A stretch of DNA of 53,998 nt from Escherichia phage vB_EcoM_DE15 (NC_079184.1), one strand, 5' to 3'. Counted from the stretch's first letter, positions 12,652-12,725 are shown. The notes: a model not told the origin generated them from the letters alone. Translations and numbers: made by a program.

Positions 12652-12725
12652 AAGAGCTTTGTAACTAGGTAGTCCGTCTGGTACCAAGACGTGTGAGAAC
12701 GTTCGATTCGTTCTACAAAGCTCTT
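12652..12725 (+). ncRNA. tRNA-shaped element (candidate small RNA 3)
   Basis: 12-bp closing stem, canonical T-arm GAACG-TTCGATT-CGTTC, 5-nt variable region and a 5-bp arm with loop GGTACCA (no U33). The D-arm is reduced to about 11 nt. Confidence 0.45.

Follow-up and report, generated by a model that had tools for sequence, protein, structure and literature searches.

Escherichia phage vB_EcoM_DE15 (NC_079184.1) carries a tRNA-shaped element at positions 12652-12725 of the 53,998-nucleotide stretch of DNA analyzed here, referred to below as the window. Comparison of this element with its counterparts in related phages indicates that it is a selected plus-strand RNA structure that retains the determinants of the tRNA elbow. 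It is best described as a tRNA-like RNA of viral origin in which the position of the anticodon loop is taken by an unusual self-complementary loop that covaries. The explanation proposed for it, which is tentative and regarded as plausible rather than probable, is that of a tRNA-derived, non-decoding plus-strand RNA of approximately 106 nt (~12640-12745) whose apical loop would pair with the same loop on a second copy of the RNA.

Conservation and Covariation of the Element

The element is present in approximately 40 of 52 matching phage records, with RefSeq/GenBank duplicates counted. There are two main allele groups, one of approximately 21 records with an identity to the window of 94% or more and another of approximately 15 records at 82-84%, and more distant forms also exist. 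In the 13 distinct homologues, standard pairs occupy 96.4% of the pair cells, compared with 38-51% when the partners are slid. Both sides have changed at 10 of the 34 pairs, and the covariation score of the same homologues was reached by none of 500 shuffles. RNAalifold independently returned the same four helices, namely the closing stem, the anticodon-like arm, the T-arm and the terminal hairpin. A lack of conservation of the pairings in related phages had been named in the preliminary description of the element as the finding that would speak against it; the pairings are instead conserved, with compensatory changes.

The individual helices follow this pattern. The anticodon-like stem covaries between CGUCU/AGACG and CGUUA/UAACG. 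Four of the five T-stem pairs change on both sides across eight alleles (GAACG/CGUUC, GAAUG/CAUUC, AAAGG/CCUUC, ACAGG/CCUGU and AUUGG/CCAAU), while the loop-closing G-C pair and the UUCRA-NN loop remain constant. The tRNA shape with a canonical T-arm that was originally described is therefore borne out, as the T-arm is both conserved and covarying. The elbow determinants as a whole are invariant: the UUCRA of the T-loop, the loop-closing G-C and the GG of the D region. The D region itself can form at most 2-3 pairs, all of them invariant.

The folding strand of 12652-12725 is the plus strand, and each segment named earlier lies where it had been placed, including the 5-nt variable region, the 5-bp anticodon-like stem and the loop GGTACCA. 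The pair cells that are not Watson–Crick are G·U or U x U when read on the plus strand, with no A x C. The G·U wobbles fit the plus strand alone, and thus it is the plus-strand RNA that appears to be under selection. With a covariance model, the plus strand reaches 128.8 bits and the minus strand 17 bits, and the window holds one copy. Thermodynamic z-scores (-2.5 for the plus strand, -3.5 for the minus strand) are weak alone and give no choice of strand.

The closing stem had been described as 12 bp in length. Those pairs are present, but the description was incomplete, as the stem extends by a further two pairs, G12649-C12728 and A12650-U12727, across a U x U at 12651/12726. This gives a total of 14 bp over 15 positions. 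Because the stem reaches 12649/12728, the trailing T-run is base-paired and there is no terminator tail. An intrinsic terminator was considered and rejected, as the plus-strand scan was negative here and four of the U's are paired with AGAUAA of the 5′ strand. A hammerhead or other three-way-junction ribozyme was also rejected, the core motifs being missing from the sequence. The resemblance of GCUCUUUU to a lambda/rrn boxA is a coincidence, as these nucleotides make up the stem's 3′ strand and differ in other alleles.

The element evolves quickly relative to its surroundings, with 82-84% identity between alleles versus 93-99% for the adjacent 290 nt, a rate that fits either allele replacement or diversifying selection. 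A metagenome scan for relatives added four loci. Searches of IMG/VR with patterns for the hairpin and the type-A core returned known Chaseviridae only, and the ArdA-like neighboring protein used as a query in the same database returned close relatives only. The E. coli genomes searched contained no match to the element. A scan of viral contigs with a 14-mer of the leader was unspecific, with 120+ matches, of which a single one passed the promoter-plus-leader filter and belonged to a non-relative.

Relation to tRNA

Recognition as a tRNA was defined as a call by ARAGORN or a score of at least 29 bits with the Rfam RF00005 covariance model. The sole ARAGORN call in the window is at 16104-16200, with none at 12652-12725. 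The relaxed and organellar modes, which had been suggested as a check alongside the general mode, likewise gave nothing sensible for the window allele. No relevant Rfam match was obtained for the whole window at the gathering threshold, or for the gap around the element (12300-13100) and the element alone at E <= 10. The metazoan-mitochondrial mode of ARAGORN, applied to the TH24 allele, reported a D-arm-reduced “mtRNA-Gly (gcc)”.

Arm by arm, the comparison with a tRNA is as follows. The T-arm has the 5-bp stem, the G53-C61 pair and the 7-nt loop U54-U55-C56-R57-A58 of a tRNA. A tRNA D-arm consists of a 3-4-bp stem and a 7-11-nt loop with G18 and G19; here, only 11 nt are left, with the GG kept. 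U33 and R37 are missing, as positions 33 and 37 in the loop GGUACCA are G and C. In place of a 7-bp acceptor with a free discriminator and CCA there is a stem of 14-15 positions that covaries throughout, and the sequence then runs UUUUC/GAUGG. On these features the element is unable to decode, which agrees with the earlier suspicion that it probably could not.

The origin of the element is indicated by a metagenomic locus (L037), where the sequence in the same slot between promoter and hairpin is matched by the Rfam tRNA model at 49.3 bits and called by ARAGORN as a tRNA whose anticodon loop is abnormal. The L037 sequence AAGAACUUUG-UA-GCUCAAUAGGCAGAGC aligns with AAGAGCUUUG-UA-ACUA----GGUAGUC in the window over the acceptor and D regions. 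Because of this alignment, the window element is taken to derive from a tRNA gene. Relative to GCUCAAUAGGCAGAGC, the D remnant ACUAGGUAGUC has lost 4 loop nucleotides and retained the GG. The former U8-A9 is now paired with a UA that was inserted 3′ of the T-stem, and the pairing carries on outward into the leader and trailer. The reduction of the D-arm to approximately 11 nt, noted at the outset, can thus be refined, the segment being what a deletion has left of a genuine D-arm, and the suggestion of a tRNA mimic is not only supported but extended to true descent from a tRNA gene.

The L037 slot tRNA lies at 1671-1744 on the minus strand of OGVR01001782.1, a metagenomic Aeromonas-phage-like contig. 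Its anticodon arm is abnormal and can be drawn with an 8-nt loop, CUUUGAGG, or as a 9-bp wobble-rich stem with a UUGA loop. The D- and T-arms of this tRNA are resembled by those of the genuine phage tRNA of the window at 16104-16200. The latter has an insertion or duplication of approximately 20 nt in the D-arm region (GCUCAG...GCUCAGUCAGGUAGAGC) and a 3′ end of ACCC, not ACCA. ARAGORN assigns it as Leu(CAG), and its loop GUUCGAC fits UCG. Its homologue in phage ST32, which is 99% identical to the GJ1 tRNA, was reported as tRNA-Arg in the ST32 paper.

The Palindromic Apical Loop

The palindrome of the apical loop was seen in the preliminary description and left uninterpreted there, though it is the most informative feature of the element, as it changes and yet stays palindromic. 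The hexamer is GGUACC in the window and the GJ1 group (GGUACC-A) and in PYps16N (GGUACC-G). It is CGGCCG in TH24 (CGGCCG-A) and, inside GCGGCCGC, in ST32 and SA91KD. The remaining forms are GGCGCC in 4HA13 and GUGCAC-A in BSBP01. All four hexamers are perfect palindromes in homologous loops of 6-9 nt, with the loops of the other alleles including CGGCCGA, CGGCCG, a 9-nt loop and GUGCACA, and the palindrome reaches 8 nt in SA91KD and 4HA13. The chance of a palindrome in a random loop of these sizes is 0.015-0.06 (~0.03 for 7-nt loops), and a switch from one palindrome to another requires paired substitutions. Alleles of one group share a fixed hexamer but differ at the positions next to it, as shown by GGUACCA versus GGUACCG and by changes in the 3′ stem.

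Self-duplexes of the loops are predicted at -8 to -12 kcal/mol, with -8.2 kcal/mol for the window allele and a cost of 0.3 kcal/mol for opening its loop. Intramolecular pairing of the hexamer is limited to the outer pair, which leaves a tetraloop that is still palindromic. A second target site was sought and not found: the loop itself accounts for the only GGTACC of the 54-kb window and for the only CGGCCG in 30 kb of SA91KD. Because the genome holds no second copy of the hexamer, the simplest partner for the loop is the same loop on another molecule. Palindromes of 6 bp are avoided across the genome, with 484 observed versus 877 expected. In the window, 16 of the 64 possible 6-bp palindromes are absent and 13 are present once.

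The Promoter-to-Hairpin Slot

The segments of the element and the features that flank it are collected in Table 1.

Table 1. Coordinates of the tRNA-like element and of the flanking features of its slot in the window.
Feature	Sequence	Position	Strand	Remarks
Phage-type promoter motif (putative)	CATTAGTTTGAATTGAA (consensus cATTAGTTGGAnnTGAA)	12623..12639	+	predicted transcript start ~12640
5′ leader	ACAACAUCA (GAAACAACAUCA in most relatives)	12640..12648	+	single-stranded in minimum-energy and consensus folds
Closing (acceptor-like) stem, 5′ strand		12649..12663	+	partner 12714-12728; 7 of 15 pairs change on both sides
Closing stem core	AAGAGCTTTGTA with TACAAAGCTCTT	12652-12663 with 12714-12725	+	
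D-arm remnant	ACUAGGUAGUC (ACTAGGTAGTC as DNA)	12664..12674	+	11 nt; GG invariant (G18/G19 equivalents)
Anticodon-arm equivalent	CGUCU/AGACG	12675..12691	+	5-bp stem, 12675-12679 with 12687-12691
Apical loop	GGUACCA	12680-12686	+	7 nt; palindrome GGUACC at 12680-12685
Variable-region equivalent	UGUGA	12692..12696	+	5 nt in every type-A allele, UGYGA or UGAGA
T-arm	GAACG-UUCGAUU-CGUUC	12697..12713	+	UUCRA and G53-C61 equivalent invariant in 8 alleles
Closing stem, 3′ strand	UACAAAGCUCUUUUC	12714..12728	+	without CCA; U-run base-paired
3′ hairpin	GAUGGAA-UGU-UUCCAUC	12729..12745	+	abuts closing stem, spacer 0

The element occupies a slot with two bookends, the upstream motif with its leader (CATTAGTTGGAATTGAA-GAAACAACATC) and the downstream hairpin (GATGGAATGTTTCCATC). 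These bookends are near-unchanged, with promoter motif and leader identical, in an Aeromonas phage whose ArdA-like neighbor is only ~36% identical. The leader is nearly invariant across genera. Every Carltongylesvirus, Sabourvirus and Faunusvirus relative has the 3′ hairpin in identical form, whereas Aeromonas phage phiA050 and L037 differ by a single change that is compatible with G·U pairing. The hairpin is unique in the window. A role as a hairpin is predicted for this sequence, with the qualification that its invariance leaves no covariation. A switch formed by pairing of CAUC in the leader with GAUG in the hairpin is possible; it is the minimum-energy fold in 4HA13, comprises only 4 bp and involves invariant positions. 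A mini-ORF from the AUG within the hairpin (12730) was also considered; it is without a Shine–Dalgarno sequence and runs for 12-39 codons depending on the relative.

The occupants of the slot vary between phages. The slot of BSBP01 is filled by another tRNA-like allele, and that of flopper, PYps23T and MLP1 by a closing stem, a hairpin, UGGAUU and a T-arm, whereas Pel53, Faunus and phiA050 have RNAs without a T-arm.

The upstream motif ends 9 nt before the closing stem. Its consensus, cATTAGTTGGAnnTGAA, has 8 copies in the window versus 0.18 expected, all of them on the plus strand and within the first 15 kb (569, 2695, 7828, 8344, 12345, 12486, 12623 and 14582). When read against the list of open reading frames (ORFs), all copies are intergenic, in the early/middle region, with the exception of 569, and three of the eight (12345, 12486 and 12623) lie in the gap that contains the element. 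TCTGAAA precedes several copies. In its layout the motif is similar to the SP6/T7-group promoters, and cATTAGTTGGAnnTGAA is a candidate consensus for promoters of the phage single-subunit RNA polymerase. A sigma-70 promoter was rejected, as there is no conserved -10 after the eight copies. Promoter function of 12623..12639 is a prediction, and the homologue of this motif in phiEcoM-GJ1 is annotated as “putative phage promoter 5”. According to the ICTV profile, the promoters of Chaseviridae have not been identified.

A second structured RNA module, referred to as element #2, is located at 12515-12616, directly after the 12486 motif, and has a 17-bp closing stem (z = -3.7). The loop of one of its hairpins, UGGAC, is complementary to an upstream GUCCA, such that a pseudoknot is possible. 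Element #2 is missing from genomes of the GJ1, TH24 and 4HA13 type. Its homologue in phiA050 (L036 3751-3847) occupies the slot of the tRNA-like RNA.

Genomic Setting

The genome is that of a Carltongylesvirus (Chaseviridae) coliphage, with all genes on the plus strand; the 1.1 kb queried at 12200-13300 is 98.6% identical to vB_EcoM_JL1. The tRNA-like element lies within a 750-nt gap without credible ORFs (12275-13029). This gap is bordered on one side by a 79-amino acid ORF, itself located after a weakly ArdA-like protein, and on the other by small ORFs, the next downstream ORF being approximately 300 nt from the element. The ArdA match has an E-value of 0.006, under the Pfam cut-off. Pfam searches of the neighboring proteins revealed no tRNA- or RNA-related domain and no TROVE/Ro domain. 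In public records, the gap is blank or bears “putative phage promoters” alone, while a few records place small hypothetical ORFs over it, which look spurious. The conserved, structured non-coding region around the element measures 750-1000 nt.

Downstream of the slot, 12746-13029 is 93-99% conserved in the genus and folds strongly (z = -3.95). It includes a hairpin at 12845-12905, AUAAGCA-[AGCUGUUAGGGCUGAAUAAUU]-AGAGG..CCUCA-UGCUUAU, with a nearly invariant asymmetric internal loop of 21 nt and one copy in the window. This hairpin is kept in Sabourvirus, Faunusvirus, Aeromonas phage phiA050 and the L037 metagenome, and its conservation exceeds that of the tRNA-like element. Compensatory swaps are seen in the outer stem of the hairpin (AAGCA/UGCUU versus AACGA/UCGUU). 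The sequence ATGTATTGGGA occurs twice in the window, at 12822-12832 and ~13030-13040. The first copy opens a mini-ORF of 16 codons that ends within the conserved internal-loop hairpin and the second opens a 66-amino acid ORF at 13030; the two may represent a duplicated translation start.

Upstream, a minus-strand sigma-70 promoter at 12415..12386 has the perfect consensus TTGACA-18-TATAAT (12/12), though the phage genes are all on the plus strand. Both hexamers are kept in Yersinia, Aeromonas and metagenomic relatives, with a variable spacer. In the interval 12427-12500, an AT-rich tract lies just upstream of the minus-strand -35 and is followed by TTGGAAT repeats. Together with the three tandem phage-type motifs, this arrangement looks like a replication origin.

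Across the window as a whole, GATC is extremely avoided, with 1 occurrence versus ~204 expected. In the late region, a tandem duplication spans 33399-33962 (282-nt unit, 77% identity).

Proposed Mechanism and Alternative Explanations

Under the proposed explanation, transcription would be driven by the adjacent motif at 12623 and begin approximately 9 nt before the closing stem. As the comparison shows, the anticodon loop of the ancestral tRNA has been replaced by a self-complementary hexamer with one additional 3′ nucleotide, and the former acceptor is locked as a 14-15-bp leader-trailer helix into which the U8-A9 linker is absorbed. Maturation of the tRNA type would not be expected, because selection keeps the would-be leader-trailer pairing and a CCA is lacking. 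The RNA would instead persist with both the long stem and the 3′ hairpin, in the form of a stable small RNA or of a leader domain, and would end at or after the invariant hairpin. The apical loop would then kiss the same loop of a second copy, present either on a free RNA or on the element in a nascent transcript. This would result in an allele-specific, self-recognizing tRNA mimic.

Candidate roles for such a dimer are feedback on transcripts of the promoter cluster or origin-like region, or bivalent capture of a host factor that binds the tRNA elbow. When the possible functions are ranked, a self-recognizing regulator or dimeric mimic comes first, followed by a cis-acting leader module, a decoy for tRNA factors and, lastly, an origin-linked RNA. 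A more specific form, in which the accumulated free RNA kisses nascent transcripts of the promoter cluster or origin-like region and so exerts feedback on middle transcription or replication priming, or in which the element is the dimerizing tRNA-like domain of a larger, undescribed oligomeric phage RNA (~12640-13030), is considered rather unlikely. If the regulatory reading holds, the loop alleles would represent specificity or “incompatibility” groups between co-infecting Chaseviridae, and avoidance of restriction sites would drive the switching of palindromes.

Several observations weigh against self-pairing. RNAalifold closes the outermost pair of the palindrome within the molecule, leaving the palindromic tetraloop described above; with this pair closed, the argument from chance falls to approximately 1/16 per allele. 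The alleles are also related and thus do not constitute independent trials. In nearest-neighbor models, the ST32, TH24 and BSBP01 alleles have predicted competing folds, and opening of their loops costs 3.5-5.4 kcal/mol. Among the T-arm RNAs of the sister slots, the apical loop is non-palindromic in flopper, PYps23T and MLP1 (AAAU) and in L037 (UUGA), and the RNAs of Pel53, Faunus and phiA050 have no T-arm. Because sister phages use such RNAs, self-pairing is not required for the job of the slot. The promoter, moreover, is a motif only, and expression, the RNA ends and dimerization are all predictions from sequence.

The foremost alternative, though an unlikely one, is that the element is a cis-acting leader module, in which a very stable promoter-proximal fold protects or insulates the downstream transcript or directs its processing, with RNase P, RNase III or RNase E as the enzyme. 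The tRNA shape would then be a processing handle or incidental. The mRNAs of phage T7 offer a parallel with their 5′ stem-loops and RNase III sites. The location of the element shortly after a promoter motif and well before the next ORF is in keeping with such a role. All three promoter motifs of the gap lead into stable structures with long closing stems, and it is the long closing stem and the invariant hairpin, not the head, that are common to all variants of the slot. As these two abut, they would stack as a helix of ~22 bp. A mere stabilizer, however, would not need a head in which every arm covaries and the T-loop and GG are invariant, nor does this alternative explain the palindromic loop. 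By the established substrate rules, a covarying 14-15-bp stem without CCA would be a poor substrate for RNase P and RNase Z and for the addition of CCA. This alternative also includes the earlier suggestion of a “processing punctuation mark”, which is weak at best: the element is situated 9 nt after its own promoter motif and not between coding regions, and sister phages fill the same slot with RNAs that have no T-arm.

It is less likely still that the element is a trans-acting decoy, in which the elbow and the coaxial acceptor/T helix titrate a host tRNA-binding factor. Possible targets are a nuclease acting on anticodons or tRNAs, from a defense system triggered by the ArdA-like protein, or an enzyme of tRNA processing or modification, with the dimer providing bivalency. 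Among four T-arm variants that differ in structure, the elbow determinants show the highest conservation, and the slot, located beside the ArdA-like gene in the early region, is a cassette that is hypervariable between genomes that are otherwise syntenic. The long stem would in addition be expected to shield the RNA from exonucleases. Set against this, no candidate partner was identified, the ArdA match is weak, and the loops mimic no particular anticodon loop and vary by allele. The RNAs that fill the slot in some relatives also have no T-arm.

A part in a replication origin is judged improbable. Here, the structured transcript would act in the formation or control of a primer, for which RNA II and RNA I of ColE1 provide a parallel, or the palindrome would serve as a DNA hairpin, a cruciform or the site of a dimeric protein. 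The gap does hold tandem phage promoter motifs, the AT-rich tract, the TTGGAAT repeats and the divergent perfect sigma-70 promoter, a layout resembling the T7 phi1.1A/B origin and the T4 origins composed of a promoter and an unwinding element. As DNA, the stem-loop is a near-perfect inverted repeat of 17 bp. However, the G·U wobbles and the disparity in covariance-model score between the strands show selection on a plus-strand RNA and not on duplex DNA, and the half-sites change fully between alleles, such that a DNA-binding protein would need to co-evolve with them. The element is also located ~170 nt downstream of the AT-rich tract.

More improbable again is the view that the loop palindromes are a mutational by-product of template switching at quasi-palindromes, the element being a tRNA relic with a functionless apical sequence. 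Inverted repeats without a spacer would automatically give a self-complementary apex, and the extended palindromes of SA91KD and 4HA13 are of this kind. Template switching should nonetheless erase the asymmetric extra 3′ nucleotide that is kept in the window, TH24, 4HA13 and BSBP01 alleles. The genome otherwise purges 6-bp palindromes, and the remaining RNA is clearly under structural selection.

Lastly, a working decoding tRNA of an unusual kind, such as the D-arm-reduced type, could appeal to the mitochondrial-mode call in TH24 and the true tRNA in the L037 slot, but is effectively refuted, as the window allele is rejected by ARAGORN and the Rfam tRNA model alike, lacks U33, R37 and CCA, has its 3′ end buried in the covarying helix, and would have an “anticodon” that differs between close relatives.

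Significance for Phage RNA Biology

The promoters and non-coding RNAs of Chaseviridae are uncharted (PMC12842549). In the literature searched, neither non-coding RNAs of Chaseviridae nor phage tRNA-like RNAs with palindromic loops are described, and the RNA appears to be undescribed in the papers and Rfam families searched. On a conservative reading, a conserved non-coding RNA locus and a candidate phage promoter consensus are added to the annotation of Chaseviridae. The locus takes the form of a cassette, hypervariable in content, that is flanked on either side by an ultra-conserved bookend.

Few natural RNA homodimers have a function, and there is hardly any description of tRNA mimics from DNA phages. 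In a small RNA that lends itself to experiment, the element unites the elbow of a tRNA with a locked acceptor helix and a self-complementary loop that covaries. Were self-recognition of the loop to hold true, it would constitute a one-component RNA specificity system and an example of a tRNA gene turned regulator or decoy.

Comparison with Known RNA Systems

The element shares with tRNA (RF00005) a four-way junction, tRNA-like linker lengths, the 5-nt variable region, the UUCRA T-arm and the GG of the D region. It differs in that it is rejected by the detectors, its D-arm is reduced to 11 nt, U33 and R37 are absent, U8-A9 lies in a helix and the stem of 14-15 bp is without CCA. The bacterial Y RNA YrlA, the tRNA-like domain of tmRNA, mascRNA and the tRNA-like structures (TLS) of plant viruses are also non-decoding RNAs with a T-arm/D-loop elbow on a long helix of the 5′ and 3′ ends. 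The ends of YrlA exit via the stem equivalent to the anticodon stem, and it binds Ro/Rsr. In contrast, the ends of the element exit via the acceptor-equivalent stem, and it has no rsr-like neighbor and no Rfam match. Unlike the TLS and mascRNA, it is without a free 3′ end of the CCA type.

The GOLLD and ROOL RNAs of phages form homo-oligomers via kissing loops (PMC12286853). Like the element, which sits in a conserved, structured non-coding region of 750-1000 nt, these are phage non-coding RNAs; they are located near tRNAs and sometimes have tRNAs embedded. No Rfam match to them was obtained (window at gathering; 12300-13100 at E <= 10), and the region described here seems to consist of modules in a row, each promoted separately, as opposed to one ornate fold.

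The C4 RNAs of P1/P7 and the CI RNA of P4 are small cloverleaf-like phage regulators that are cut by RNase P from the leader of their own operon. Their loop alleles define heteroimmunity, with the loops pairing to separate downstream target sites. The element resembles them in being phage-encoded and promoter-proximal, in its long 5′/3′ stem, and in having loops suited to pairing that differ between alleles by coordinated changes. It differs in that there is no Rfam C4 (RF01695) match at E <= 10, the loop is self-complementary with no second site, and the phage of the window is virulent.

With regard to the loop, the dimerization initiation site (DIS) of HIV-1 carries GCGCGC or GUGCAC, and ColE1 RNA I and RNA II interact through 7-nt kissing loops. 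The element and the DIS both present a self-complementary hexamer in a loop of 6-9 nt flanked by an unpaired purine, the hexamer of the BSBP01 allele being literally GUGCAC, and in both the alleles stay palindromic through sequence change. In the phage, however, the loop is set on a tRNA-like body in a DNA virus with no conceivable role in genome dimerization, and the dimer is a prediction. Hairpins that dimerize through kissing loops have been reviewed (PMC7357161). Of these systems, the C4 and CI RNAs are the closest functional analogues of the element, and the HIV-1 DIS and ColE1 RNA I/II the closest analogues of its loop.

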